Shown: one piece after another, positions 9,461-46,871 of the stretch | How the letters are laid out: every line of letters starts with the position of its first letter | Position numbering within the stretch: the stretch's first letter is position 1 | Assembly (NCBI RefSeq): GCF_048403405.1 | Contig: NZ_CP183129.1 | Source of the DNA: Escherichia coli | Lineage (GTDB): Bacteria; Pseudomonadota; Gammaproteobacteria; Enterobacterales; Enterobacteriaceae | Strand: one strand, 5' to 3' | DNA length: 64,000 nucleotides | Made by a program: the position numbers and the translations under genes | The notes under the pieces: model-generated | Databases searched by the model: none | What the model saw: only the letters and a program-made list of their open reading frames with translations | What the model was told of the DNA's origin: nothing

Positions 9461-10097
9461 TCTTCTGAATCACCGGGCGACAAAATATAACTGAGTTACA
9501 AATAAGTACCAGTCGAATGAGTATTGTATTAAGAATTTTTGAGTATCGCTGATACAACCAGAAAGCAATGCTAGCGCAATATTATAGGGCCAGCAATTGA
9601 GATTATTAGCAAAAGCATGTTAAGAATTAATTACCGAATTTATATATTAATTATAGTAAGGCAATGAGCTATTTTTGATAGTAAAAATAAAACAAGTTGA
9701 TTTGATATGTTAAATGAACAAATTAATCTTGATGGCAGTCTGATTATTGGTGAGGTTTATAGGTCAGTTTTTTTCGCCAGCGGTTAAAGAAATAGAATCG
9801 TCGTATAAAAAAGGGTGTTCTGGGGCGTGTAAAACAACATCTTCACCTTAATGGCGATACAGTTGGCTGAGAGTCAGCAGGGGGGCAAATCACCTGCAAA
9901 TAAACACGGCGCATGCTGGCGCGAATATCGCGGATGCGTTCGAGGACAGAAGAACCGACAGGCGGATTCTTCAGTCGCTCATCGTCCATCATAAAACCTT
10001 TGATCAGGTATTCCTGAAGCCGATTGAATATTGAGCAGTAGAAAATCTCTGGATTGACAGTATTACAAGGGGTTGGAGAATGTCAGAAGAGGCATTT

Positions 10098-10192
10098 TGG
10101 CGGAAGATCACAGGAGTCGAACCTGCCCGGGACCGCTGGCGGCCCCAACTGGATTTGAAGTCCAGCCGCCTCACCGGAGACGACGATCTTCC
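10098..10192 (-). tRNA. selC: tRNA-Sec (selenocysteine tRNA, selC)
   Basis: Reverse complement of 10098-10192 reads GGAAGATCGTCGTCTCCGGTGAGGCGGCTGGACTTCAAATCCAGTTGGGGCCGCCAGCGGTCCCGGGCAGGTTCGACTCCTGTGATCTTCCGCCA, the 95-nt E. coli selC sequence including the UCA anticodon loop (CTTCAAATC) and 3' CCA. Confidence 0.97.
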
Positions 10193-10484
10193 GCGCCTCG
10201 ATTGCTACATGGAGGCGGGGCGCATTATAGCTACTTCCTTGAGTTTCTACATCCCCCAGATCAGTTTTTTCCGCCTAATACACGCAGCGTATTATCACGA
10301 AAGCATTATAATTCATATAAAACCCATATTTTACAATGATATATGAGCAGAATTAACGCTACCACGATCACATAAAACAAGAATCATAAATTAATAACCA
10401 GATATCGGAATATTCGCTCTCACAGGGATGGTTTACAAAATGCGTTATCGGTCTCAGCACCCCTATAGCATCAAGGAAAAGCAG

Positions 10485-33497: not shown

Positions 33498-34918
33498 TAA
33501 TCACCCCATAGTGAAGAAAAGTTACTGCTGGCTGCTGGCTGTGATACCTGCTCAGATTGCGGCAATGTCTGCGACGAAGAAGACGTTCCTCTGTCAACTG
33601 CTGAAATAACCCGCAAAGCATCATAAGCTCGACCAGAAGCAGCTTTCAGCGAATTGAACTGGTTTTCCATCTTCCGGCGCTTGGTATCAATGGTTTTTGT
33701 GGAGTCGCCAGGCTGAGGGAAATACATTTGATAATATTTTGACATTTCAGCAGGTACGATAGCTGCCCCTGTTTCCTGACGGAGTATTGCCATTATTGCG
33801 TCATTAGCATTAACAACGTATTGCTGCTCTGTTGGGCTGAGCGTTAAGTTAGCCAGCGTCCCATTACCCAAAGCATTATTAATGATCGCCACTCGCTGTG
33901 GGCTAAGCTGGTCTTTCAGTGTATCTATTGAATCAAGAGCATCCCTAACCCTGTATGCAAATCCAGCAGCTTTTTTAGCCCCTTCTGGCGACTTTTCCAT
34001 GATCTTTTGGGCTGTTGGCAAAGCTATTGGACGAAACCCATCTCCAGATATTGGCTGGTTTAGTTTTCCCTGCTCTTCACTTCCGTCTGTGTAGTATTTT
34101 GTGACAGTGCCATCATCGTTTTCTCTAACACTCATTAATTTTTTGGCGTTTGTATTAATTCCAGCCGCTGCCGCAAATGCCGCCGCCCCCTCTGGATCCG
34201 CCTTTAACATTTGAGCGTACTGATTGTAATTCTGCATTGCTGCTGTTGGTGCATATGCTGACGTTAACGCATTTGCTCGGCTAATATCCTGCCCTCTCGC
34301 CTGAAGTGCTTCGCCAGCCTGATTGCTGCGGATTGTCTCTGCCAGCCTGCCTCGCTCAATATCCCGACCTTCCATTTGATCTTTGATATTGAAATACTTC
34401 TCATGACCGAGAGAAAACAGTGCCATACTACCAGCAAGCCGCTGGAATCCCTGTGGATCATTAACATGCATTTCGGCAACAGACTCAGGAGAAATTCCCA
34501 AGCGACGCATTTCATCTTCGTTATCTGCTATGAATTTTCCAAATGCCCCAGTTCCGAGCGAAGATGCGATTTGAGCACTAGTCGCAAGATGACCAATAGA
34601 ATTTCTCTGGTCGTCATCAATAAAGCCCATCCCTTTCTGAACGCTTTCAAATTCTTCTGGATACTCAGAAATAAGACTGCGCATTTTGTTTCTGTCTCCA
34701 GACTCAAAAGCCCCGGCATATGCTTTCTGAAACTCTGATTTACGCTGTTGTTGACGTGCCTGCTGATTAATCTCAGCAACGCCTCTTAGCCCCTGTAGCG
34801 CCATTAAACCTACGTTTGGCTGCTGCTGATACTGCACAGGCTGAGGAACGGAAGAACGAGGAGCATTATCATTTTGCGGTGCCATGCTAGGCAGCCCGCC
34901 AAGTTGCCATGTCGTCAT
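33497..34918 (-). CDS. Cargo operon gene 3: hypothetical 473-aa Gln/Ala-rich protein; candidate ejection-protein (P22 gp20-like) homolog
   Basis: Translationally coupled to flanking genes (shared boundary positions 34918 and 33497); no TM segments or catalytic motifs recognised. Confidence 0.6.
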   Translation of the reverse strand: MTTWQLGGLPSMAPQNDNAPRSSVPQPVQYQQQPNVGLMALQGLRGVAEINQQARQQQRKSEFQKAYAGAFESGDRNKMRSLISEYPEEFESVQKGMGFIDDDQRNSIGHLATSAQIASSLGTGAFGKFIADNEDEMRRLGISPESVAEMHVNDPQGFQRLAGSMALFSLGHEKYFNIKDQMEGRDIERGRLAETIRSNQAGEALQARGQDISRANALTSAYAPTAAMQNYNQYAQMLKADPEGAAAFAAAAGINTNAKKLMSVRENDDGTVTKYYTDGSEEQGKLNQPISGDGFRPIALPTAQKIMEKSPEGAKKAAGFAYRVRDALDSIDTLKDQLSPQRVAIINNALGNGTLANLTLSPTEQQYVVNANDAIMAILRQETGAAIVPAEMSKYYQMYFPQPGDSTKTIDTKRRKMENQFNSLKAASGRAYDALRVISAVDRGTSSSSQTLPQSEQVSQPAASSNFSSLWGD

Positions 34919-35595
34919 TAGAATCCAAGCCCCCCAACAAGACCAATAAGCCCACCACCAATAGCCCCGGCGACATTACCTATACCCGGAACAACGGAAC
35001 CAAGTTGCGCACCCGCTAAAGCGCCTGATGCCGCCCCACCAATACCACGCGCAAGACTGGATGGCTGCTGCGCCTGACCTGCACGAATAGCGCCAAGCCC
35101 CTGCAAGAGTTGTCCGGTATTATTGGCGTAGTTTTGCCCTGCTGTTGCCTGCCCTGATGCCGCATTCATCCCGACATTTAGCAGGTTTCCATAATTTTGC
35201 ATTTGCCCACTAAGCCAATTGTTATAAAGCATGGGCGCAATGGAAGATAACTGGTTACTGGTAGCTGTTGAGCCAAGCCCCCCGGTAGCTTCTGCTGAGA
35301 CAAGGTTCTGATAACGGGCCTGATCTGCCTGTGTTTTATATAAACCAGAACCAAAGAAATCATTCGCGGCTTTATTCTGCCCTTCCAGAGTCATCAGTCC
35401 TTGCAGTTGTTGTAAAGCAGGCAATCCGACTTCTGCATACGGCTTGAGATTATTCATCACCGTATTCCACTGCTCGCGCTGCAAATCAATTGCCTGCTGC
35501 TGGGCCTTCGCCTGGGCTTTAGAGGCACCACCATCACCGCCTTTTTCGTATACGGCACGATTGAGATGTTTATGAGCTATATGGGTAATTAACAT
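34918..35595 (-). CDS. Cargo operon gene 2: hypothetical 225-aa protein with C-terminal glycine-zipper segment; candidate ejection-protein (P22 gp7-like) homolog
   Basis: C-terminus GIGGAASGALAGAQLGSVVPGIGNVAGAIGGGLIGLVGGLGF is a glycine-zipper type membrane-inserting motif; Gln/Asn/Ala-rich body; overlaps upstream gene by 7 nt. Confidence 0.6.
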   Translation of the reverse strand: MLITHIAHKHLNRAVYEKGGDGGASKAQAKAQQQAIDLQREQWNTVMNNLKPYAEVGLPALQQLQGLMTLEGQNKAANDFFGSGLYKTQADQARYQNLVSAEATGGLGSTATSNQLSSIAPMLYNNWLSGQMQNYGNLLNVGMNAASGQATAGQNYANNTGQLLQGLGAIRAGQAQQPSSLARGIGGAASGALAGAQLGSVVPGIGNVAGAIGGGLIGLVGGLGF

Positions 35596-36050
35596 TCGCT
35601 GAGTTCCTTATATTGTTGCCGTGTTAACTGATAAAGCGTTACGCCGACGGGTTTACCACATCTGATATATGCATCGGCCAGGTGACCAACACGGGTAGCG
35701 CCAAGCAAACGGATAATTGCCCGTCCGTATTTCGTGGTGTCAGGAACCATGGTGATGCTGTTAAGGAATGGTGAGTTTTCGAGAAGCCATTTGCAGAACA
35801 ATCGATGCCCTTGCAGTGCATATTCACCACGGAATCCGGGGTCGTACACCGCATGGCATTCAACAATGCTATGCCAGAAGTTACGCACTTCATGAACGCC
35901 TGTCAGCACTAATCCTTCGTAGATGCCGAGATATACCGCATCAGGCTTGATGTAGTACGTGTGCCCCGGCTCAACAATATTTTCGGTATTGCCAGGCTCG
36001 TTAAGAAAGGCCTGTAATCGCACCGGGTTATCAATAAATTTTAGTTCCAT
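35589..36050 (-). CDS. Cargo operon gene 1: hypothetical 153-aa soluble protein
   Basis: First gene of the coupled four-gene operon; several conserved-looking His/Cys (HEVRNFWH, ECHAVYDPGF); no family recognised from memory. Confidence 0.55.
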   Translation of the reverse strand: MELKFIDNPVRLQAFLNEPGNTENIVEPGHTYYIKPDAVYLGIYEGLVLTGVHEVRNFWHSIVECHAVYDPGFRGEYALQGHRLFCKWLLENSPFLNSITMVPDTTKYGRAIIRLLGATRVGHLADAYIRCGKPVGVTLYQLTRQQYKELSEC

Positions 36051-36676
36051 GCGGTGCCATCCGTTTTCACATACAGCCTGCCAGCGCCTTATCTATTAAC
36101 CCTCGTGCAATTTCATGCAGAGTTGGCGCTACTCCAATTCCTGATTTTTTACGCTGCTCTTCCTGAATTTTCTTTATCGCTTCCATTTGCTTCTCACTTA
36201 TCAATACCGGCTTTACTGAAATAGCCATAACGCCCCCTTAGAACTGTATAAAACAACAGTTATTATAGTTTCGCAAATCGCAATATTCATCATCGTAATT
36301 GCAAAATATGAAACAAATAGCACAAAAAAATGCCACCGCTCAGTAGCTGGTGGCATCGTTCTGTGTGTCAGGTTTTGACAGGTTTTTTATGGACTCTAAA
36401 AACTATATTTATGGTGTCGCATTACTCTTTACGGCAGGCGCTTTTCAGTTCTGCCCTTGCTTCTGGCTCCATTGGTAATTTGATTCGCGATCAGCTATGC
36501 GGATGGTTTGCTGAACAGGCATAACAACTTCTCAGAGGCTGTTTTTTGAACTACGAAAATTTCGTAGTGCTCACTTTCAAAAACGTCACGCCCTTGTACA
36601 CAGGATTTTACGAAAGTCTCGTAAAACACTCTCTGATGCCAGCCAGGTGTTGTGCGCATCAATTCAGTCACATTGT

Positions 36677-36787
36677 GTTGGTTCAAAATACCGTGTTGTT
36701 GGTTCAGTGTTGGTTCAATAAAAAGAATAAAATCCTTATAAAACAATACTCTTTACAAATTGAACCAACTGAACCAACTGAACCAAC
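36677..36787. repeat. Iteron array 2 (ori-like), inverse arrangement of array 1, immediately downstream of the primase gene
   Basis: GTTGGTTCA at 36677-36685, 36698-36706, 36709-36717; tandem TGAACCAAC at 36761-36769, 36770-36778, 36779-36787; internal spacer CTCTTTACAAA is the inverse of TTTGTAAAGAG in array 1. Confidence 0.8.
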
Positions 36788-36812
36788 ACCTTTTCTACGC
36801 ACATGAAGAAGC

Positions 36813-39572
36813 TCATTCTTCAGATGAGTTATAATCTCCTGGCTGGTAATTGAGTACATAAACGTTTATTTGTCGTCCCTGAATACGTGGTGATTTTCTT
36901 TGGTATCCACGACCGCTGTTTGGTGGGGTTAGCATCCCGGCTTTTTTCAACACTTCAGCAAACTGTTTTGCGTTGAAACCACATGCGATCTCCTTTTCAA
37001 ATGTGGCCGGGAATGTGTAGAAAATCATTGGGCTTTCGTCATGTTCTCCACGCTGACGGTATCCGGCTAAATCTTTGATGGGCAAATCTGCCGGGCTGTA
37101 TGGAAATGGTGCAAAACGGCTAAGCCCATAGGCATTAAGAAATGCCTCCGTTTGTTCAATAATCTGCTGATGCTCTTTGTTACCTGTGCCGAACTCGCGC
37201 AACCATGCGTTATAGCTGTGCTGTATCGCATCACGGCATGTCTGAGCATCCCAGCCTGTTACAACCTCGCCTAACAACAATGCGGCCTCCAGAATGGCAA
37301 ATCGCGCGGCTACACGGTGAACCTGCTCACCATAATCGGGTGGGATCAGGCTTCTCCATCTGCTTTCGCAATCACGAACAGTTTTAATAGCCTGTTGCTG
37401 GTGGTCTGCCAGCCATTTAATCCACTCACGCCCGGCTGCGCCATGGTGATGCTGGTAAGCGTCTTTCAGTGCGTCTGCGTGCTGTTTTCCGTTCTGGTAA
37501 TCGTGAAAGCGTACTGCTTTACTCAACGGAATATTCAGCAGTCGCACCAGTTGCCCGGCTTTGGTTTTTCGCCCGGAAGTAGCGATAAATGTTTCTAAAT
37601 CCATTTCTCCGGTGCTGATTGCCACTGTACGCCAGCGTTTTAGATCCCGGTTTCCACCATCTTTAGCGCCTTGCAGTTTCCCTACACCGTTAAATAACGC
37701 ATAGGCAGACTGTGAAACGCTGACAGGATCAGCGCCCTGACCAACTTCATCAAGCGGCATTAGTCCGTCATTGTGGGCGGCGGCCTCATTTGCCAGCCCC
37801 AGCGCGGTTCCGTACCTCGTCAGCCGCAGTAAATCAGGGTTGCCGTATAAGCTGCTCGCCACGTTTGCCGTGGTGGTCTTACCTGCGCTCGACTGCTCAT
37901 AGAAATGAATGCCGAACCCGTCAGCGCCCACCAGCCCAATCAATGGTGCTGCCAGTGCTGCGCCGATCCCGGTCATCATTGAATAGTTACCAAAGGCCAG
38001 ACGCGCCACGTTATCACGCCAGCTTTGCGCGCTCCCTGAGACGGTATATCCGGCTGCGGCTGAGCTTCTCCCGCTGAACAGCACAGGATTTTCAGGTGTT
38101 CCGATGATTTCCCCATCAGGCATGATGTACGCTCCGCATTGCCAGCCAGTGGCATGAGCAACACGCCACAATTCACGAGAGCCACTGCGTTGTAGCCAGT
38201 CTGCCAGTATTGCTCTGAGGCTGCTTTTGGTCGTGACATTTACCCCACCAGCTTTAAGTGTGCGCCATCCTTCACGTTCACCAATATCAGCCAGTGGAAT
38301 GGCAGCGGTTGTCGGCGTTTCAGAACCAAACGACAGCCAGCGAAGAATGAGATACTGGTCTTTATCGTCTCTGCCAGTACCGATAACGCTTAACGGAGAA
38401 CATAACCAGCTTTCGTTATTGATGATTTCTCCACTCTGGCTGTCAGCTCTCGGAGATACCCAATAAATACCATCCTCGCGGCTTTCTATTCTTGGTTTCA
38501 GTGGGTCGGTATCCATAACCTTAAAATCGCTTCCCTCAATGGTCTGTGGCTCCTGTTTCACGCCATTACCCTGTGGTTGGTACATTGACTTATTGAACGC
38601 TTCTGTGGCGCATTTAATGCCGTGTTTTTGGTGGTAATCATTCCAGTCTGCTTTGTGACCTGTCGGGGGTAATGCCACCCATCCAGAAACAGATAAAGCT
38701 GCTTTTTCTGCTGCTATTCTCCCCGTGTTTTGTCTTCCTTCGCTGTGGTCGTTATCCGCAGCAATGATGATTTGTGCTGAAGGAAATTTATCCCGCAGTA
38801 CCTGGGCGACATATAACAGGTTCCCGGCATCAATCGCCGCCACTGTCAGCGCCTCTGGACGAATTAAATGGGCAGATAATGCCGTTGCTAGCCCTTCTGC
38901 GATTAAGATGCTCTGTGTTGTTTCTGGTGCGTTTATGGCGTGATATGCCCCCCGCTTTGCTGAACCTGTCAGGAGTCTTTTTTCACCATGTGAGGTAATA
39001 GTCTGTGCTGCTGTGACTGCGCCGGATTTATCCACCAGCGCCAGCAACAGAGATCCATCGGGCAACACGGGGAATGTAAAATCACCTACCCCTTTCGCAA
39101 CCAGATAATCAGATTTGCCGTTTACAGCCTTTCTGCGCATGTCATCAAACTGACGGGAAAACGTATCCCGTCTTTGTTGTTCGTCCTTCTCCGCCCTTTT
39201 CAGGCGCTCCTGTTCGCGTTGCTGGCGCTCGGTTTCCAGTTGTTCCCGTTTCTGGCTGGTGGCTTCTGGTGTTTCCGTTGTCCGGTAATCAATACCCAGA
39301 ACATCAGCGGCAAGCAGCGCCGCCTCTGTTGTGTCGCAGTTATTTACGCGTTTAATTAAATCCAGCCCATCACCAGCGCCGCACTGATTACAGATGAAGC
39401 TACCGCGCCCGTTGTCATCGAACCGGAATCGATCTTTGCCCCCACATGCAGGGCAGGGAGCATGACGGCGCGGAGAGTCAGGGACATTTATGTTCAGGCA
39501 GCCCAGCACATGAGGCCAGTTGTTTTCAGACGCACTGATAACCTGACGGATAAGATCAATGTTTCGCATCAC
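36813..39572 (-). CDS. Replication primase-helicase (zinc-finger + TOPRIM + helicase-like domains; P4 alpha / PICI Pri-Rep type), 919 aa
   Basis: N-terminal Cys4 motif CPACGG...CNQCG; TOPRIM-like acidic motifs (LIAEGLATAL..., IIIAADNDHSEG); P-loop-like SSAGKTT in the C-terminal half; followed directly by iteron array 2. Confidence 0.8.
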   Translation of the reverse strand: MMRNIDLIRQVISASENNWPHVLGCLNINVPDSPRRHAPCPACGGKDRFRFDDNGRGSFICNQCGAGDGLDLIKRVNNCDTTEAALLAADVLGIDYRTTETPEATSQKREQLETERQQREQERLKRAEKDEQQRRDTFSRQFDDMRRKAVNGKSDYLVAKGVGDFTFPVLPDGSLLLALVDKSGAVTAAQTITSHGEKRLLTGSAKRGAYHAINAPETTQSILIAEGLATALSAHLIRPEALTVAAIDAGNLLYVAQVLRDKFPSAQIIIAADNDHSEGRQNTGRIAAEKAALSVSGWVALPPTGHKADWNDYHQKHGIKCATEAFNKSMYQPQGNGVKQEPQTIEGSDFKVMDTDPLKPRIESREDGIYWVSPRADSQSGEIINNESWLCSPLSVIGTGRDDKDQYLILRWLSFGSETPTTAAIPLADIGEREGWRTLKAGGVNVTTKSSLRAILADWLQRSGSRELWRVAHATGWQCGAYIMPDGEIIGTPENPVLFSGRSSAAAGYTVSGSAQSWRDNVARLAFGNYSMMTGIGAALAAPLIGLVGADGFGIHFYEQSSAGKTTTANVASSLYGNPDLLRLTRYGTALGLANEAAAHNDGLMPLDEVGQGADPVSVSQSAYALFNGVGKLQGAKDGGNRDLKRWRTVAISTGEMDLETFIATSGRKTKAGQLVRLLNIPLSKAVRFHDYQNGKQHADALKDAYQHHHGAAGREWIKWLADHQQQAIKTVRDCESRWRSLIPPDYGEQVHRVAARFAILEAALLLGEVVTGWDAQTCRDAIQHSYNAWLREFGTGNKEHQQIIEQTEAFLNAYGLSRFAPFPYSPADLPIKDLAGYRQRGEHDESPMIFYTFPATFEKEIACGFNAKQFAEVLKKAGMLTPPNSGRGYQRKSPRIQGRQINVYVLNYQPGDYNSSEE

Positions 39573-39927
39573 CGTACCCCACGTGGTCTATAGCGTTTGC
39601 GATATGGCTAACCAGCATCTGCCACTTGGTTATTCCGTAATCAGTCAGCATGCCATCATTGTTTAGCCACATATCAAATTCAGCGGTTGTCGCAAGTTTC
39701 CACTTATCGCCGTGGACAGTCCTCATTGCTGGGTACATGAATGCGCAAATCAGATCACAAACATCTGACGGCTTCAGAGATGTAGTAATAGTGCGTCCCT
39801 CTGGCGTCTGAATTGCCATTTTCTCTTCACCAGTAGAATGAAGGTTATGAATCCACACAGCACCAGCAATCTTTGCCACCTGCTCTCCGATTGCGGAGCT
39901 AAGCGCCATTTCTGCATTTTCACGCAT
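39556..39927 (-). CDS. Hypothetical protein, 123 aa (element replication/regulatory operon)
   Basis: Overlaps primase start by 17 nt and the upstream ORF by 8 nt (coupled operon). Confidence 0.5.
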   Translation of the reverse strand: MRENAEMALSSAIGEQVAKIAGAVWIHNLHSTGEEKMAIQTPEGRTITTSLKPSDVCDLICAFMYPAMRTVHGDKWKLATTAEFDMWLNNDGMLTDYGITKWQMLVSHIANAIDHVGYGDAKH

Positions 39928-40261
39928 GAGAACCTCCCGCTACAGTTGCGCCCATGTCATTAACCATGCTTTGCCATATCTCACGCCCGACGTCAGTCAA
40001 TCTGTCCTTAGTGACGCAACGATCAAGAAGCTCGATCCCCACGGTTTCCCACTGCGGGTAGAACACTTTCATGGCTGCCAGTGCGTAACTATCGATCAGG
40101 CTGCGAACGCCTTTTACTCCATTGACGATTTCCACACGTACGGCCTCTCCGTCCGCATCAATCATGAAATAGTCCCCGCCGCTGGTGGAGGTAATGTGGT
40201 TATACAGTGCTGACGCATACTTATTTGCCAGCGCATTCAGTCGGAAATTTTTAGTAATCAT
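39920..40261 (-). CDS. Hypothetical protein, 113 aa
   Basis: Co-directional, translationally coupled ORF in the small-gene operon upstream of primase. Confidence 0.5.
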   Translation of the reverse strand: MITKNFRLNALANKYASALYNHITSTSGGDYFMIDADGEAVRVEIVNGVKGVRSLIDSYALAAMKVFYPQWETVGIELLDRCVTKDRLTDVGREIWQSMVNDMGATVAGGSHA

Positions 40262-40271
40262 GGTTCCATCC

Positions 40272-40874
40272 TCAGTGCGTCACTGGTTCCGATGGCATGC
40301 CGTTTTCATTCAGTTCAGCTATAAAGCTGTTGTGAAGTTCAGCAAGCGTTTCACGACCAAATGGAGTCAGTGCTCCTTGTTCCACATCCATCATGGCTCT
40401 GTAGAAAATGATGGAGCGTTCTGTGCCAGACTCGATGCCAAAACGTTCTATCATCGCGCCCTCAATGTTGTTTGCCATAGCGAGGCGCTCTGCTACTGGA
40501 TACAGCGGCATGGCGACGATGCCGTTGGAATAAACAGCCACTTCGGAAGGATTGCCAGTATCATCAATGATGCTGACAGTGCCGTTTTCCTCTCTCATTT
40601 CCAGCATGAATACTGTTGCGATCAACCATCTCCACATAATGACGTTATGCTGTGATGTGTAATCGAAATATCCCTGGTTGCCGCCATCGGCAATAGCGAG
40701 ATGTATTGACATACCTTCATCTGGTTTATCGTCATAATCCCCGGCATCCAGACGATTTACGGCATCAATATATGAGACGGTCTCAACGCGTTCTGTCATG
40801 CCATCGTTGCTGCGGTGCATGATGTTTACGCCGTCAGGCGTTGCTTCTGCCTGGAAAGTTAAGAAATTATTCAT
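40272..40874 (-). CDS. Hypothetical protein, ~200 aa
   Basis: ORF-track ORF 40272-40979 trimmed to the internal Met (MNNFLTFQ...) because the longer reading overlaps the upstream 73-aa ORF; GAGG-type RBS. Confidence 0.45.
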   Translation of the reverse strand: MNNFLTFQAEATPDGVNIMHRSNDGMTERVETVSYIDAVNRLDAGDYDDKPDEGMSIHLAIADGGNQGYFDYTSQHNVIMWRWLIATVFMLEMREENGTVSIIDDTGNPSEVAVYSNGIVAMPLYPVAERLAMANNIEGAMIERFGIESGTERSIIFYRAMMDVEQGALTPFGRETLAELHNSFIAELNENGMPSEPVTH

Positions 40875-41088
40875 GTTTCGCCTCGCCTGAATGATTCTGT
40901 AACTCATATTTGCCCAACAATTCGTCTGCTTCCTGAATAGCTTCTGGTACGCCATTGAGCAGTGACATAACCGCGCCAATCATTAACTTGTCTCTGTTGC
41001 TGGGGCTGGCCCCTTCAAGCCAGAACCCTAAAACAGTCTGAACCTGTTCGATGCGACATTGCGCTTCAATGAGCTGGATGTTGGTCAT
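40867..41088 (-). CDS. Hypothetical small protein, 73 aa
   Basis: Coupled small ORF (overlap ATGA-type with neighbour at 41085-41088). Confidence 0.4.
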   Translation of the reverse strand: MTNIQLIEAQCRIEQVQTVLGFWLEGASPSNRDKLMIGAVMSLLNGVPEAIQEADELLGKYELQNHSGEAKHE

Positions 41089-41348
41089 TTCGCACTCTCC
41101 GCATCGATTAAACTGATATCTATCAGAGAGGTAACTTTTTGTAGCCAGCTAGTGATTACTGTCGCCTGTTCCCCTCCCACCGATGGAAGAATCTCATTCA
41201 TCACATGAACCAGACCTGTGCGCGCTCTGGTAAGCCGTTCAGTCGTGCGATCTGCAAGAGTGAATGTGTCTGGATATGGTTCTTCACGGCTCAGCAATGA
41301 TTCAATTTCCAGCTCACACGGATGACGATAAATTAAGTTGATATTCAT
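41085..41348 (-). CDS. Hypothetical small protein, 87 aa
   Basis: Coupled small ORF in same operon. Confidence 0.4.
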   Translation of the reverse strand: MNINLIYRHPCELEIESLLSREEPYPDTFTLADRTTERLTRARTGLVHVMNEILPSVGGEQATVITSWLQKVTSLIDISLIDAESAK

Positions 41349-41539
41349 TTTTCACCCCCAAGAATTACCAGCTCTGCACGGGCATCGTTAACCAAAGATG
41401 AGCACGCTTTAATCGCATCCACGACATCAGTAGCGTCCATTTCTTCAGCCGAAAGACTGACAGCAACCAGGACAGCCGCTGCTTGCTCGATTAATTGAAG
41501 TGCGGACGTAAGGCGAGGGGTATTAATTGAGTTATTCAT
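41345..41539 (-). CDS. Hypothetical small protein, 64 aa
   Basis: Coupled small ORF in same operon. Confidence 0.4.
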   Translation of the reverse strand: MNNSINTPRLTSALQLIEQAAAVLVAVSLSAEEMDATDVVDAIKACSSLVNDARAELVILGGEK

Positions 41540-42599
41540 TGGTTGCCCCCGTTTTTACTGGCATTTCGCCACCTTCCAGCAGGAAATGAACGTCACGAAC
41601 GGCGAGATCCAATATCGCGAGTAACGCCTTCAGTCTTTCGTCTCGTGAGGGAGAGTTGCTCACCAGAATGTCGTTAATCACTTCTGTCAGTGTGATGATC
41701 TGGCTTGTGCGTTCGAGGGGATCCATATGCACATCGTAGGTTTTAATCATGTGCCACCTCCATGCGGATACGACCAGCAAAAAAGCAGACGTGATCGCGC
41801 ACCAGAGAACGGCGAGCATCGCGTTCAGACTCGGCAGCAATATGATGAATTCTGGCGGTAATTGTCGGGCAATCGCGGCGAACTGCGGCGATAATCCAGA
41901 TAAATTGCGGTTTTTGGGTAGGGGTAGTAGCCAGCATGTGGCAGCCTCCATTCGATAGCATGTAACGCTACCACCGGAAACGCCAATTTCGCTGGTGGTA
42001 GCCCAGACAGGGTTGGCGTAACCGGCTCGAATGGATACCGGCGCTTCCGAAGAAGCCCCTGCCTGAGCCACCATTGATTGACAAAGGCGCTGGATTATAC
42101 ACCAACGCCCAAAAAATGGGTGAGTCAGACCTACGACATAAAAAAAGACGCTCGGCGCGTCATATGTCGCCATTCGATTTACCAGGACGCCAATCCCGGC
42201 ACCCGTTTTATGAGGTGCCTTATAACCATAAACCGTGTTGCCGCATAACGGCAAGCTCTTTTTTATGGACTCCGAAAACTCGCTATTGGAAGCACCAGAT
42301 GCACAGTACATCGCGCTCATTTCGTTAACGTCACGCGCGCGGATGAAGGTTTTTGTGGAGTCACTACGCGAGCGGAAGACATCATCTACGACCAGAAATT
42401 TTCTGGCGCAGCCGCTGACCTTCTCAATGCTAATATCATCGCCCGAGATTTCTGGTATGGTTAAGGCATCCGTTCCGACCACCAGCAAATGATAAACTTT
42501 GCTTGTATCTGCTGTATTAATGCCTGACTTTGCCGTCATATTGCTGGATTTTGGCGACATACCAGCCAGTGAAAATGTCTTCTTCTGGACGGGTATCAT
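41532..42599 (-). CDS. Hypothetical protein, 355 aa (C-terminal half of reading frame is of doubtful coding quality)
   Basis: Start overlaps the stop of the upstream small gene (42596-42599), supporting a real start; C-terminal half is Trp/Cys-rich and may reflect a frameshift or separate small genes. Confidence 0.4.
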
Positions 42600-42772
42600 T
42601 GGTTAACCTCCGCGAACTCCTTCATGAAACGCGCCAGCGGTTGTACGCATGGCGATTGATACCCGTCGCGATAAAACGTCACTCGGTTGTGAGACACGCT
42701 TTCGACAGTAACGAGTGCTCCGTGGGCATCTTTGTAGCGTTTTTGTGGTTGTGGTGTTCCTGTTGGCTTAGA
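42596..42772 (-). CDS. Hypothetical small protein, ~58 aa
   Basis: ORF-track ORF 42596-42862 trimmed to the internal Met (MSKPTGTPQ...) that overlaps the antirepressor-like gene stop by 4 nt. Confidence 0.4.
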   Translation of the reverse strand, partial: SKPTGTPQPQKRYKDAHGALVTVESVSHNRVTFYRDGYQSPCVQPLARFMKEFAEVNQ

Positions 42773-43601
42773 CATTGAGCGCCTCCAGACGCTTGGCGAG
42801 CCAGCGTTGCGACAGGCGGGTGAGTTCTCCTTTGCGCTGCTCATATTCCATGCCCATATCAATTAACGTGATATTGGTGCTTTCGAGATATGAGAGGTGC
42901 TCAAGCTGTTCTGCGTTCATATGGTCGCGAGGTTCGCCAGAATAGCCATTTATCCGCGCCCACTGCTTAGCAGTTAGCCCACCAAGAACGATACGAGAAA
43001 TCATATTGCTCTCGTTTGTGTAGTGGTGTTGCTGCGTCATTTTCCCCATCTCGGCACGGGCCATATTCAGCGCATCGCACATTGGCTTAAAGTTGTTTGC
43101 GGCACTAATACGGGCTTTTAGCTGGCGACGATAGCGGGCGGCGATTTCAGGCACGGTACGCTGTAATTCTTCCTCGCACTGGATGAAATAACGGCGGATA
43201 GCGCGACCCTGATCATTGCGTTCGATCATTGCCAGTTCTTTCGCCATTCCGACACTTAACAGATAGTCTTTGCCGGGTCTGCCAGAGTGCTTTATCTTGC
43301 TGTAAGCCGCGCCATTCGGGCTTTTCCCCAAATTTGGGGAAATTGTTTTATGGACTGAGTAATCGTGCCCAATGGTGAAGTCATATTCAGAGATGCGATC
43401 AGTGATCCATGTAGAGAAGTCTTTTCCCACGCCCAACGCTTTGTGTAACGCTTTTGCGCTAACAATATTGGTTTCACGCCCACCGATATGACCAGGAATA
43501 ACCGGGACAATTGCGGCAAATTCATTACCGTTAATTGTGCCCAGAGAGGCGTTCAGATGAGGGGCGGCCTCAGAAATTAATCTGCTTTTTTCGATGTTCA
43601 T
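42768..43601 (-). CDS. Phage antirepressor-like protein (AntA/KilA-type N-terminal domain), 277 aa
   Basis: N-terminal region ...IVSAKALHKALGVGKDFSTWITDRI... resembles AntA/KilA-N antirepressor domains; C-terminal coiled-coil; typical of satellite/prophage regulatory modules. Confidence 0.55.
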   Translation of the reverse strand: MNIEKSRLISEAAPHLNASLGTINGNEFAAIVPVIPGHIGGRETNIVSAKALHKALGVGKDFSTWITDRISEYDFTIGHDYSVHKTISPNLGKSPNGAAYSKIKHSGRPGKDYLLSVGMAKELAMIERNDQGRAIRRYFIQCEEELQRTVPEIAARYRRQLKARISAANNFKPMCDALNMARAEMGKMTQQHHYTNESNMISRIVLGGLTAKQWARINGYSGEPRDHMNAEQLEHLSYLESTNITLIDMGMEYEQRKGELTRLSQRWLAKRLEALNV

Positions 43602-43613
43602 TTTCAGTCTCCG

Positions 43614-44045
43614 TTAGGCGGCGTTAAACGCGTTCGGGTAGAGTTTCAGAATGTCGGCAATTTCCTGCTGAGAAAGTCCGTTGTGATCATTTATGTTCGC
43701 AAGATGGTTAACATGAGTGATCACTTTCAGAACATCACCACGGCAGGAGAAACGGTAGCGAAGGTGTGTTCCGATACCATCAGGATTCTTTTCGTCGATA
43801 CGCTCCAGAGTGATTCCAAGCTGGCGTTCTAACTCTGTTGCATAGTTACGACCAGAAGACAGACGGCAGTAGCGAAGAATGTCATTTTCTGTCCATCCCT
43901 CTATACCAGTACGCAGCATATAGACTCTGGCACGATGCTTTTTCGGTGTGCGCTTTGGTGCTTGAAGGGATTTTGTCAGGGGCGTAACATCAGATACGCG
44001 AATATCTGAATTAGCCGCCTGTAATGGGCGGTTTTTCTTTTCCAT
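43614..44045 (-). CDS. Hypothetical basic protein, 143 aa
   Basis: Immediately downstream of alpA, start/stop abut (44045); Lys/Arg-rich N-terminus. Confidence 0.5.
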   Translation of the reverse strand: MEKKNRPLQAANSDIRVSDVTPLTKSLQAPKRTPKKHRARVYMLRTGIEGWTENDILRYCRLSSGRNYATELERQLGITLERIDEKNPDGIGTHLRYRFSCRGDVLKVITHVNHLANINDHNGLSQQEIADILKLYPNAFNAA

Positions 44046-44248
44046 CAGGCCACCTTCCCGCGGCGTTCTGCCAGCCAGTTGTGAATCTCAACCGCATCAA
44101 ACGCAGTTATTTTTTCTCCCAGCTTTACCGGACGTGGTAGTGAACCGTTTCTTACTTTACGGTCGATGGTGGATACACTAACGCCCAGCAATTCAGCCAG
44201 GCGGAAGCGTCTGATATAGCCTTTTGTAGGAATAGTGTCGGTGTTCAT
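44045..44248 (-). CDS. alpA: AlpA-family transcriptional regulator (prophage CP4-57-type excisionase-like HTH)
   Basis: 67 aa; MNTDT..IRRFRLAELLGVSVSTIDRKVRNGSLPRPVKLGEKITAFDAVEIHNWL is the canonical AlpA/MerR-like HTH pattern. Confidence 0.85.
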   Translation of the reverse strand: MNTDTIPTKGYIRRFRLAELLGVSVSTIDRKVRNGSLPRPVKLGEKITAFDAVEIHNWLAERRGKVA

Positions 44249-44311
44249 GCTTCCCGTAACCTCTTAGCGATAGTTGTTGCTTCGTTACGGGAGGAAGTAT
44301 CTGTACATATA

Positions 44312-44346
44312 TGAACAATAAAAAGGCACAGTAATGATACTGTGCC
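44312..44346 (-). terminator. Intrinsic terminator after the 321-aa cargo gene
   Basis: Perfect 8-bp stem GGCACAGT/ACTGTGCC with 6-nt loop, followed on the minus strand by TTTTTATTGTT. Confidence 0.6.
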
Positions 44347-44362
44347 TGAATAGTTAGCTACT

Positions 44363-45328
44363 CTACCCCTTACCGTTGGCGGCAGCACGTAAGTGTCTCA
44401 AAATCACATCTTCATTTGTGATTGCTAACGGTGGAATTTCGTCTTTATGAGCCACTATGCAATCCCGCCACTTCTCAGGGCTTATTTCTTTCTTTTTGCC
44501 ACGGCATTCATCAGGATACTTTGACAAAAGATATATTGCAGATTTGAAAAGTTTTTCCCTGTTTTCAGCATGTCTCTCGGCATTATGGTTGCTATTTTTT
44601 ATTTCAGGTATTAGTTCCTGTTCTACCGCCATTTCGTATCGTTTTTTGCTCTTAGCTGCGTCAAAACTTCCATTAACCTTTGCGTCATGAAGGTATTCTA
44701 AATCAGCCTTTGTTATATAAATGTTTTTATCTGACAGGCTACTCAGGTGAATTTGGGAACTTTGCATTTTGAATTTATATAGATCACAATCAAATGTTGC
44801 TTCAAGTCGCACATATGGTTCTCCACATTCTTGTGAATGATAATGTCGTGTTGTTCTACCGCGTACACGCAACAATCCACATGCAATTGATTTTCTTACA
44901 ATAAAAGAGTTTTTGCCAATTTGTTCAAAAACATTTTTATTGTCGCTGTCTTCAACTGTCAGTGGTTTATGTGCATAAAATAGCTCATAAGCACCGCTTT
45001 CAGATGCTGGGATATAAACTTCGTTGCTTGCGCTGGTAATAAGAAAAGGAAATGTAAACCTTACTTCTTCTGGGTACATAAGTAATAAATCAGTTATAAA
45101 ATTAGCATCTTTTTTGAAGTGGATGGTGGCATCAGATTCAATGAAATCAAGAAAGTCAGCATAGACATAAAAGTCTATATGTAGTCTATCTTTCCAATGC
45201 CATATATCATCAATTTCACAATTTAATAATTTTGATGCTCGCTCTATCGTGCAGTAGTCCAAAGGTGGAATACCTGATTCCTGCCATAAATTTCTATGCA
45301 CCACTGTTGTTTCATGAGAGTCGTTCAT
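44363..45328 (-). CDS. Hypothetical AT-rich cargo protein, 321 aa, between integrase and alpA
   Basis: Markedly AT-rich codon usage compared with flanking int and alpA; own terminator; no motif recognised. Confidence 0.6.
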   Translation of the reverse strand: MNDSHETTVVHRNLWQESGIPPLDYCTIERASKLLNCEIDDIWHWKDRLHIDFYVYADFLDFIESDATIHFKKDANFITDLLLMYPEEVRFTFPFLITSASNEVYIPASESGAYELFYAHKPLTVEDSDNKNVFEQIGKNSFIVRKSIACGLLRVRGRTTRHYHSQECGEPYVRLEATFDCDLYKFKMQSSQIHLSSLSDKNIYITKADLEYLHDAKVNGSFDAAKSKKRYEMAVEQELIPEIKNSNHNAERHAENREKLFKSAIYLLSKYPDECRGKKKEISPEKWRDCIVAHKDEIPPLAITNEDVILRHLRAAANGKG

Positions 45329-45423
45329 TGCGTCACCTTTTACGCTGCGCCTTATTTTGTGATTGAGCCAGGCGGTAAGGCTTCCCGCTTTTCGCCCCGT
45401 CGAGCTAGGCTCAATCTATTCAG

Positions 45424-46683
45424 TTAGTTCGCCCTTCTGAGAGGCGTTACGTTGTAGTCTTTTCCGCTTTCCAGTGCCACCAGCAGATCAGCCCACTGTG
45501 CCAGTGCTGCTTTACGCTCATCAAAATACTGATGGCGGTTATAAATCCCCTCTACGCCCTTAATGCGATGATTGAGGCATCGTTCCGCCACGACAGGATC
45601 AACACCCAACGCTGCTAAATGAGTACGTGCGGTGCGTCGGAAGTCGTGAATCGTGAAATTAGGCACATCCGGCATTTCGGCGCGAACCTTAGCCAGTGCT
45701 ACGGGCAAAGTGCTTTCCTGAATATGTGGGATCATTCTGTTTTGCATCTTCCTGGCTGGAAGCACCCATGCGCTATTACATGAAAAGGTGTGTAGCTCTC
45801 TCAACCATTCAACGGCTGGGGAAGGTAGAGGTATATCAATAGGGTCTCCGTTTTTGCTGCGTTCTTCCGGCAAATGCCATACCGCACCATCTAAATCAAA
45901 CTCTTCCCATCGTGCGGCGCATAACTCCATCTTACGAACGCATAGTGCCAGCAATAGCTTAAATGTCAGTTCGTTCTGGCGGCTGAATCCTTTTGCGGTG
46001 CGCATAGCCTCGAATAGCCTGATAAGCTCATCGCGAGTTAGCCAACGGTCGCGGGAAACCTCTTTACCACCAGCATCAGATACTTCAAACGCTGAACAAG
46101 GGTTTATCTCCAGAGCGTGGCGTTTTATCCCGTAGTCAAAGATACGGCGTGTCCAGCGTAATACATCTGTTGCTATCGTTGGTGCTCCTCGGTCAACGAT
46201 ACCTTTCAACATGTCGTCAATGTGGCGTGGCTTAACGTCCTCTACCTTCATATGCCCAATGCAGGGGTTAATATCCTTATCAATTCTCCGGCGAAGGATA
46301 TCGGGATGTTTCCATCTCGGAAGTATCTGGCGCTCGAAGTATTCGGAGGCCAGATCTGAAACACGCATGGCGTTTTTCTCAGCCTCCATTTTTGCCAGTG
46401 CTTCAGCTTTTCGTTCCTGTTTCTCTGCTGCTACGTCATAGCCAAGAGCAACTCTGGCTGACAGCTCTTTTGCTGTTTCTCTGGCTTTTGATAGTGACAG
46501 TTCGGAGTAAGAGCCTATAACCATAGCCCGCTGCTTTCCTGCGAGCTTATAGCGGAATCGCCAGAACGGGGCTGTGTAGTTTTTGGGGTAGCAAATATAA
46601 AGGCCGTTGCCGTCTGCCTTGCCATCAAATCTGTCTCCCGCCTTTATCCATGCGCGGATCTGCATATCTGTGAGTTTTGGCAT
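45424..46683 (-). CDS. Tyrosine recombinase, P4-type integrase, 419 aa
   Basis: From MPKLTDMQIRAWIKAG...GNGLYI (P4-integrase N-terminal arm-binding pattern) to C-terminal catalytic region with ...HDFRRT...LNH..., ending ...GIYNRHQY (tyrosine nucleophile context); adjacent to right-end repeat. Confidence 0.9.
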   Translation of the reverse strand: MPKLTDMQIRAWIKAGDRFDGKADGNGLYICYPKNYTAPFWRFRYKLAGKQRAMVIGSYSELSLSKARETAKELSARVALGYDVAAEKQERKAEALAKMEAEKNAMRVSDLASEYFERQILPRWKHPDILRRRIDKDINPCIGHMKVEDVKPRHIDDMLKGIVDRGAPTIATDVLRWTRRIFDYGIKRHALEINPCSAFEVSDAGGKEVSRDRWLTRDELIRLFEAMRTAKGFSRQNELTFKLLLALCVRKMELCAARWEEFDLDGAVWHLPEERSKNGDPIDIPLPSPAVEWLRELHTFSCNSAWVLPARKMQNRMIPHIQESTLPVALAKVRAEMPDVPNFTIHDFRRTARTHLAALGVDPVVAERCLNHRIKGVEGIYNRHQYFDERKAALAQWADLLVALESGKDYNVTPLRRAN

Positions 46684-46740
46684 TGCGAATACCTGAATAT
46701 CGAATATGGGTGTGTACATAAAGCAATGTACATGAAAGTC

Positions 46741-46764
46741 ATTATGTACACCTCTATGTACACG
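46741..46764. repeat. Right-end direct repeat (putative attR core / integrase-binding repeats)
   Basis: ATTATGTACACCTCTATGTACACG; 22/24 identical to 28810-28833; additional TGTACA motifs at 46711-46740. Confidence 0.55.
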
Positions 46765-46808
46765 CATATTGTGCGCTTTATTGCGTCGTTATGATAGCTC
46801 ATGATAAC

Positions 46809-46846
46809 AAAAAAGCCCGACATTTCGCGGGCTTTGTGGTTTTTTG
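46809..46846 (-). terminator. Intrinsic terminator downstream of yicC
   Basis: GC hairpin AGCCCG...CGGGCT flanked by A-run and T-run on opposite sides (bidirectional-looking). Confidence 0.55.
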
Positions 46847-46871
46847 CTGCTTGGTGATTTTTACTGATAGC

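Follow-up and report, generated by a model that had tools for sequence, protein, structure and literature searches.

Islands at selC, the gene for tRNA-Sec, have P4-type tyrosine integrases that recombine with the 3′ end of the gene, and a selC gene with no obvious island beside it raises the question of whether the site is free and what the DNA next to it consists of. The locus analyzed here lies in a 64-kb segment of an Escherichia coli chromosome (the window, meaning this whole stretch), which is oriented opposite to K-12 and runs from eilA to lldP.

selC and Its Integration Site

The sole tRNA gene detected by ARAGORN in the 64 kb is tRNA-Sec (UCA) (Table 1). It matched Rfam model RF01852 (gathering score, 47) over the full model (positions 1–91) with 83.8 bits and is identical to K-12 selC at 95 of 95 positions (100%); its initial annotation as an intact selC is therefore borne out, as is the estimate of ~640 bp for the distance to setC, which measures 637 bp (9461–10097). 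The setC product is 99% identical to K-12 SetC. The same annotation had called the spacer AT-rich, a description that holds for one part of it and fails for the other. The whole spacer is 38.6% GC vs. 47.6% for the window, and the 340 bp proximal to setC (9461–9800) are 31.5% GC with local dips to 27%, but the ~300 bp proximal to selC (9801–10097) are 46.8% GC. Alignment with K-12 showed the spacer to be collinear throughout with one gap, at 96–98% identity and with one copy of the selC 3′ core: identity was 98.2% in the AT-rich part, 96.3% over the 163 nt of a rhuM fragment described below, and 96.1% in the 77 nt adjoining selC. We detected no further Rfam match in the spacer at E ≤ 1, and promoter-like and terminator-like matches in it were no more frequent than in shuffled sequences. 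The AT-rich tract showed no similarity to the selC flanks of B2 strains or Salmonella and had no homolog in the B2, cryptic-clade, or Salmonella loci; we presume it to be the regulatory region of setC.

Table 1. Positions of the features discussed in the text, in window coordinates
Feature	Position	Strand	Basis
eip/eicA/eilA type III secretion translocator module ("selC-B"), part	1–5615	−	TUM14771 annotation; 38% GC; continues past the window start
setC, MFS sugar-efflux transporter, 394 aa	8276–9460	−	ORF; Pfam MFS_1
AT-rich tract upstream of setC	9461–9857		Composition; 98.2% identical to K-12
RhuM-family internal fragment, ortholog of K-12 yicT (b4653)	9858–10020	−	Pfam, tblastn, DNA alignment, annotation
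Native selC 3′ flank, 77 nt	10021–10097	−	Aligns with the E. whittamii, E69, and CUPF09 flanks
selC 3′-terminal 21–30 nt, attB core	10098–10127	−	Single copy here; duplicated by island integrases in occupied genomes
selC, intact tRNA-Sec (UCA)	10098–10192	−	ARAGORN, Rfam, identity to K-12
Integrase-bearing phage-like element, 18,129 bp	28743–46871	−	Absent from otherwise collinear TUM14771; integrase homolog; 99.9%-identical annotated copy

Using tblastn with the integrases that adjoin selC in O157:H7 and in a Nissle-like strain, we did not detect any homolog in or near the spacer, around 8100–10200, and an integrase pseudogene in the spacer was rejected on the strength of this search with the two selC-island integrases. 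The only integrase homolog that they detected in the 64-kb window lies at 45472–46674, within an element at yicC. A second selC 3′ end was likewise not found anywhere in the 64 kb: probes of 22 and 31 nt matched selC alone at up to three mismatches, the best selC-end-like local alignment elsewhere between yicL and selC was at chance level, and a repeat search of 8100–10300 returned only short repeats at chance level. No large cargo block separates selC from its neighbor; the interval does contain the rhuM relic and the lineage-specific setC, which other lineages lack or have replaced. Because the selC 3′ core is present in a single copy, no element is integrated and the site is unoccupied. The absence of an integrase or island at selC, as first annotated, is thus confirmed. 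The accompanying statement that the selC pathogenicity-island site is empty is correct for integrated elements but not for the flank as a whole, which bears an old rhuM scar and is not virgin noncoding DNA: the spacer contains the relic of rhuM, a gene of the kind found on islands, but no integrase pseudogene.

Occupied genomes carry either a tyrosine integrase directly after selC, as in O157:H7 and the Nissle-like strain, or a 24-nt selC-end repeat before the same spacer, as in PEC240. Their integrase-bearing islands (the P4-like element of O157:H7 and the defense/CP4-like islands of the Nissle-like strain and PEC240) share the window's attB, the selC 3′ end, but have a tyrosine integrase within 160–300 nt of selC and, in the strain traced to its end, at least 19 kb of cargo, neither of which is present beside selC in the window. 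Similarity to the native flank in O157:H7 stops 2 nt past the CCA end, and the integrase lies within about 160 nt. In PEC240, an island of >20 kb lies between selC and the 24-nt attR copy, after which come the window's flank, the rhuM fragment, and setC, and K-12-type hosts of selC islands have the attR copy followed by exactly the window's spacer. The rhuM fragment is therefore older than those islands, since attR in the occupied genomes precedes the same flank and fragment. The spacer-side matches of occupied genomes stop 21–30 nt into selC (query positions 719–728, equivalent to window 10118–10127), which shows that the 3′-terminal 21–30 nt of selC are the attB core recombined by the P4-type tyrosine integrases of selC islands. 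These end points fit the published 21-bp repeat of EAEC 042 (PMC7058095). A selC-end repeat is present in PEC240, B2 strains, E69, and CUPF09 and absent in the window.

The frequency of the unoccupied junction was determined with a 120-nt junction probe, requiring at least 80% coverage, in 5,424 complete E. coli genomes. The K-12-type spacer is joined directly to selC in 2,492 of them (46%) and is present in any arrangement in 3,602 (66%), the difference, about 1,110 genomes, being those in which an insertion splits the spacer from selC. An intact rhuM directly follows selC in 845 of the 5,424, including the type strain ATCC 11775, with a degenerate selC-end repeat as its border and another rhuM relic past that repeat, and by subtraction about 980 have other arrangements, e.g., O157:H7, in which no K-12-type spacer was detected. 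No other single configuration is as common in E. coli as the unoccupied K-12-type junction, which is an ordinary one. Together, these data make it highly probable (our estimate is a little under 9 in 10) that the window carries a K-12-type selC integration hotspot that is currently unoccupied and that its spacer is a palimpsest with a decayed rhuM (yicT).

Emptiness could also be secondary, if an island like selC-A of enteroaggregative strain EAEC 042 had been present in a recent ancestor and had excised precisely. In EAEC 042, which also has the selC-B locus, selC-A lies with selC on one side and a 21-bp repeat of the gene's 3′ end on the other, and one ST69 isolate retains part of selC-A (PMC7058095); the window has neither selC-A nor the repeat. 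The roughly 1,110 genomes with an island in front of the same spacer and the traceless nature of integrase-mediated excision are compatible with such a history. Precise excision is an event for which sequence evidence is impossible in either direction, the junction layout is identical to that of K-12 and of 46% of genomes, and simple absence is the more economical explanation in a lineage where selC-A is "largely absent" (PMC7058095). We consider past occupancy of this kind unlikely and retain the reading of an unoccupied K-12-type site. Being free, the site would be predicted to accept an island that targets selC, for example one of the LEE type or a defense island.

The rhuM Relic in the Spacer

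The initial annotation of the spacer as noncoding overlooked the relic of a RhuM-family gene (Pfam, 46.5 bits, E = 3.9e-12; tblastn, E = 5e-20). The Pfam match is that of the minus-strand translation of 9858–10019, LQEYLIKGFMMDDERLKNPPVGSSVLERIRDIRASMRRVYLQVICPPADSQPTV, to positions 52–98 of the 252-position profile PF13310 (Virulence_RhuM), for which the curated cut-off is 33.7 bits; the tblastn match is to the intact RhuM of B2 strains, with 43 of 65 residues identical. The surviving piece corresponds to rhuM codons ~120–183 of 345 and has internal deletions of 24 and 9 nt, leaving ~54 codons. A complete RhuM domain or ORF (about 345 aa) is absent from the window, and with the N- and C-terminal parts gone, the stretch is a pseudogene fragment, which starts 78 nt from selC and has setC beyond it. 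A chance similarity to RhuM was rejected on the basis of the E-values and of synteny.

Existing annotations agree with this identification. The Prokaryotic Genome Annotation Pipeline (PGAP) places an incomplete "RhuM family protein" pseudogene over the same stretch in TUM14771, a genome that is identical over an 851-bp region and differs from the window by four bases across the first 28.7 kb. In K-12, the pseudogene yicT (b4653) is annotated at the corresponding position between selC and setC, and the shared position together with 96.3% identity shows that the window fragment is its ortholog. Gene order, spacing, and fragment position in the selC-yicT-setC segment of K-12 MG1655 (b3658, b4653, b3659) are as in the window. 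The two differ in that the K-12 fragment has a stop (CTGGTCTAAGG) where that of the window reads through (CTGATCAAAGG), so that at 9843–10083 on the minus strand the rhuM fragment is, in sequence terms, open for ~80 codons.

The presence of the relic bears on the simplest view of the locus, in which the selC flank is a plain AT-rich noncoding spacer that never contained foreign DNA. Such a view is compatible with the lack of an integrase and of an att duplication, with the collinearity of the spacer with K-12, and with the 31.5% GC of the setC-proximal 340 bp, for which no homolog was detected. It is hard to reconcile with 163 bp of RhuM fragment that score above the Pfam curated cut-off and have intact homologs at this site in other E. 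coli as well as in Salmonella pathogenicity island SPI-3, or with the 47% GC of the selC-proximal half, and we regard it as very improbable. The site is better described as free at present but scarred, and the relic shows that "empty" tRNA hotspots can hold scars of past occupants.

DNA alignment locates the junction between native flank and relic: the end of the flank (...TTCAATCGGCTT) joins rhuM at nucleotide 360 (GCTTCAGGAATACCTG...), and the four bases GCTT are common to both partners. Such microhomology is characteristic of illegitimate recombination and marks a deletion of ~400 bp.

In TUM1881 (locus L007, 14289–15065), an IS1 lies inside the rhuM fragment and a deletion extends from the fragment to within adeD, removing setC, yicL, nlpA, yicS, nepI, yicN, and adeQ. 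The match to TUM1881 ends inside the fragment, and the possibility that this genome represents a longer ancestor of the relic was rejected because the deletion is IS1 mediated. IS1 was also found inside the same spacer in several further genomes.

Our literature search on yicT returned only unrelated papers, and no description of an E. coli rhuM relic was found in the literature searched. The annotation of yicT in K-12 and the layout of the locus in ST69 (PMC7058095) are already known. What is new, and only mildly so, is the cross-species map of complementary rhuM deletions at selC presented below. The practical consequence of these observations is small and they leave current understanding unchanged, but the relic is a useful marker, a fixed point by which the several alternative selC-yicL intervals can be typed.

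rhuM at selC in Other Lineages and Genera

In the B2-type interval, selC is followed by a gene for a 345-aa RhuM (PF13310, 393 bits), a hypothetical gene, and yicL, without setC. About 110 nt past the rhuM stop is a degenerate selC 3′ end with 12 nt of native flank, CGACTCCTGTGAT----CGCCAAAATGCCTCTTC, which is an attR remnant, and beyond it is a second, frameshifted rhuM relic comprising codons ~166–245 (locus L005, 10980–11285; locus L016, 29241–29444). The ~35 nt that follow selC in B2 strains match the island end beside the integrase in the Nissle-like strain, which indicates that the B2 rhuM sits in a stripped-down island. This mini-island, as represented by ATCC 11775, has rhuM right after selC, as does the window, and shares with it the initial ~23 nt of flank; it is unlike the window in its intact rhuM, its degenerate selC-end repeat, its second relic, its hypothetical gene, and its lack of setC. 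In the Nissle-like strain, an island of ~19 kb takes the place of the intact rhuM copy, and its cargo includes an integrase, an ABC-three-component defense system, a CbtA/YeeU toxin-antitoxin pair, and a retron-type HNH endonuclease.

A RhuM-family gene also lies downstream of selC in Salmonella SPI-3, in the same orientation as in the window. The order in Salmonella Infantis is selC, remnants, rhuM (STM3755), rmbA, misL, fidL, marT, slsA, cigR, mgtB, and mgtC; the distance from selC to rhuM is 2.9 kb, and the RhuM protein is 85% identical to intact E. coli RhuM. The SPI-3 gene is complete and is followed by rmbA, misL, marT, and mgtCB, whereas the window retains ~54 codons at 78 nt from selC. 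DNA identity of the window fragment is 77% to the B2 rhuM and 73% to the Salmonella rhuM, as against ~97% for the flanking genes. The Infantis sequence (locus L018; AFYI01000003.1) is a 515-kb chromosomal contig that holds selC and SPI-3 and was filed in a phage collection.

Species-representative genomes were scanned with a selC-end-plus-flank pattern, which yielded four short loci. Those of E. whittamii, E69, and a Citrobacter were informative; the fourth, from Leclercia, contained no homolog of rhuM, setC, or yicL. The flank of E. whittamii aligns with that of the window over its first ~81 nt past selC, ~40 nt then lead to an ATG, and rhuM codons 1–14 (MSDKRLTQSPTGEF) follow before the gene is cut off. 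E69 and the divergent strain CUPF09 have the same flank and rhuM start behind an attR copy, with fliB and yicL after them; across the three genomes, rhuM extends to codon 14 or further. In the Citrobacter genome, what remains of rhuM is C-terminal (codons 310–345) and lies ~130 nt after selC. The fliB-like ORF that follows the truncated rhuM start was located in E69 (L011, 58–1104), E. whittamii (L012, beyond 800), and CUPF09 (L019, 8887–10101); in CUPF09, it is annotated as flagellin lysine-N-methylase fliB and occupies the interval before yicL that setC takes up in K-12-type genomes. At this locus, CUPF09 is ~86% identical to E69, and it carries a frameshift in yicL.

K-12-type genomes, B2 strains, E. 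whittamii, the two cryptic-clade-like strains, and a Citrobacter thus each retain a deletion remnant of their own, different from the others, of rhuM beside selC or attR. We infer that a full-length ancestral rhuM lay just after selC and was reduced by lineage-specific deletions, a scenario read from the sequence of the remnants. In the ancestor of the Escherichia lineages compared here, a complete rhuM would have started about 120–135 nt downstream of selC, given that the gene still begins there in E. whittamii and the cryptic-clade strains. The flank at 10021–10097 would formerly have been the upstream region of the ancestral gene, because the same flank runs into the rhuM ATG in E. whittamii, E69, and CUPF09. 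In the K-12-type lineage, the deletion of about 400 bp with GCTT microhomology would have fused this flank to codon 120 and further deletions would have taken the 3′ part of rhuM, with the AT-rich tract and setC now occupying the remaining interval up to yicL; each lineage would have retained a different deletion derivative. A full-length rhuM in the native flank followed by setC was absent from all genomes examined, and this intermediate is thus a deduced state.

Instead of descending from one ancestral gene, the copies may have come with rhuM-bearing elements that reached selC several times independently. The 77% and 73% DNA identities, far below the ~97% of the flanking genes, indicate that the copies are not simple orthologs, and RhuM-family genes are carried by phages and plasmids. 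The K-12-type and B2-type relics, moreover, overlap in too few codons to show common descent.

The content of the interval between the rhuM relic and yicL depends on lineage: the AT-rich tract and setC in K-12-type genomes including the window, a hypothetical gene in B2 strains, fliB in CUPF09, with the start of the same fliB-like ORF in E. whittamii and E69, and SPI-3 cargo in Salmonella. Among the loci examined, setC was found solely in the K-12-type selC-yicL interval and was absent from those of B2 strains, the cryptic clade, and Salmonella. On the view that rhuM is ancestral, this lineage-dependent content means that the interval acts as a replacement hotspot and that setC is not universal backbone. 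Carried further back, the same view would have a rhuM-bearing element at selC before the genera split, the selC-proximal part of SPI-3 as its survivor, and setC as lineage-specific replacement cargo, a proposal we put forward tentatively and hold to be somewhat short of an even chance.

Nearly even odds attach to a different reading of the K-12-type interval, in which the rhuM relic, the AT-rich tract, and setC (~8195–10074) together form a small, old, integrase-less islet rather than backbone and represent one of several alternative cassettes at the selC hotspot. B2, E. whittamii-like, and Salmonella loci are without setC and have other genes there, namely the hypothetical gene, fliB, and SPI-3 cargo. 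Homology between K-12-type and B2-type intervals ends 23 nt after selC and restarts 29 bp upstream of yicL, at window position 8194; setC is 46% GC, compared with 31.5% in the tract upstream of it; and RhuM-family genes are known on phages and plasmids. The segment, however, contains neither an att repeat nor a mobility gene, 66% of genomes have it at core-like identity, and setC is treated as backbone in the literature (PMC7058095).

Foreign DNA at yicS and yicC

Unlike K-12, the window strain has an eip/eilA module on the far side of yicS and, at yicC, an 18-kb element. The initial annotation had placed foreign DNA at both positions, yicS and dinD/yicC, and both placements are confirmed. For yicS, the evidence is the 38% GC of the module and its annotation in the near-identical genome TUM14771, in which a block of ~16.4 kb lies between yicS and nepI, genes that are adjacent in K-12. 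This block encodes a SycD-type chaperone, YopB-like and SipD-like translocators, eilA, and the large adhesin iatC, a 9-kb inverse autotransporter gene that forms the end of the module.

Modules of this type have been related to selC by name. The selC-A and selC-B loci of EAEC 042 and ST69 are reportedly the subject of work by Sheikh et al. In the published layout, selC-B (eip) contains eicA, the eip genes, eilA, and a gene for a large intimin-like adhesin and is separated from selC by three backbone genes, setC, yicL, and nlpA (PMC7058095). EAEC 042 has the other locus, selC-A, between selC and the 21-bp repeat, and ST69 isolates mostly lack this phage-like selC-A (Fox et al. 2020, PMC7058095). 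Absence of selC-A with presence of selC-B, as in ST69, is the configuration of the window (PMC7058095). The eip/eilA module is known in the literature as the "selC locus", yet no att repeat accompanies it and three genes intervene between it and selC; in this lineage, the type III secretion-related "selC locus" is therefore integrated not at selC but three genes away.

For yicC, the evidence is an integrase-bearing insertion of 18,129 bp relative to TUM14771. The element lies between yicC and dinD, where it directly abuts the stop codon that ends yicC, and its own ends show no long direct repeat. Its genes encode the tyrosine integrase at 45472–46674, a TOPRIM/DUF927 primase, an ash-family protein, an AntA/AntB antirepressor, P22-type DNA-ejection proteins, and a PerC-family regulator. 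At least 80% of an 18.4-kb query containing the element was found in 95 of 5,426 genomes.
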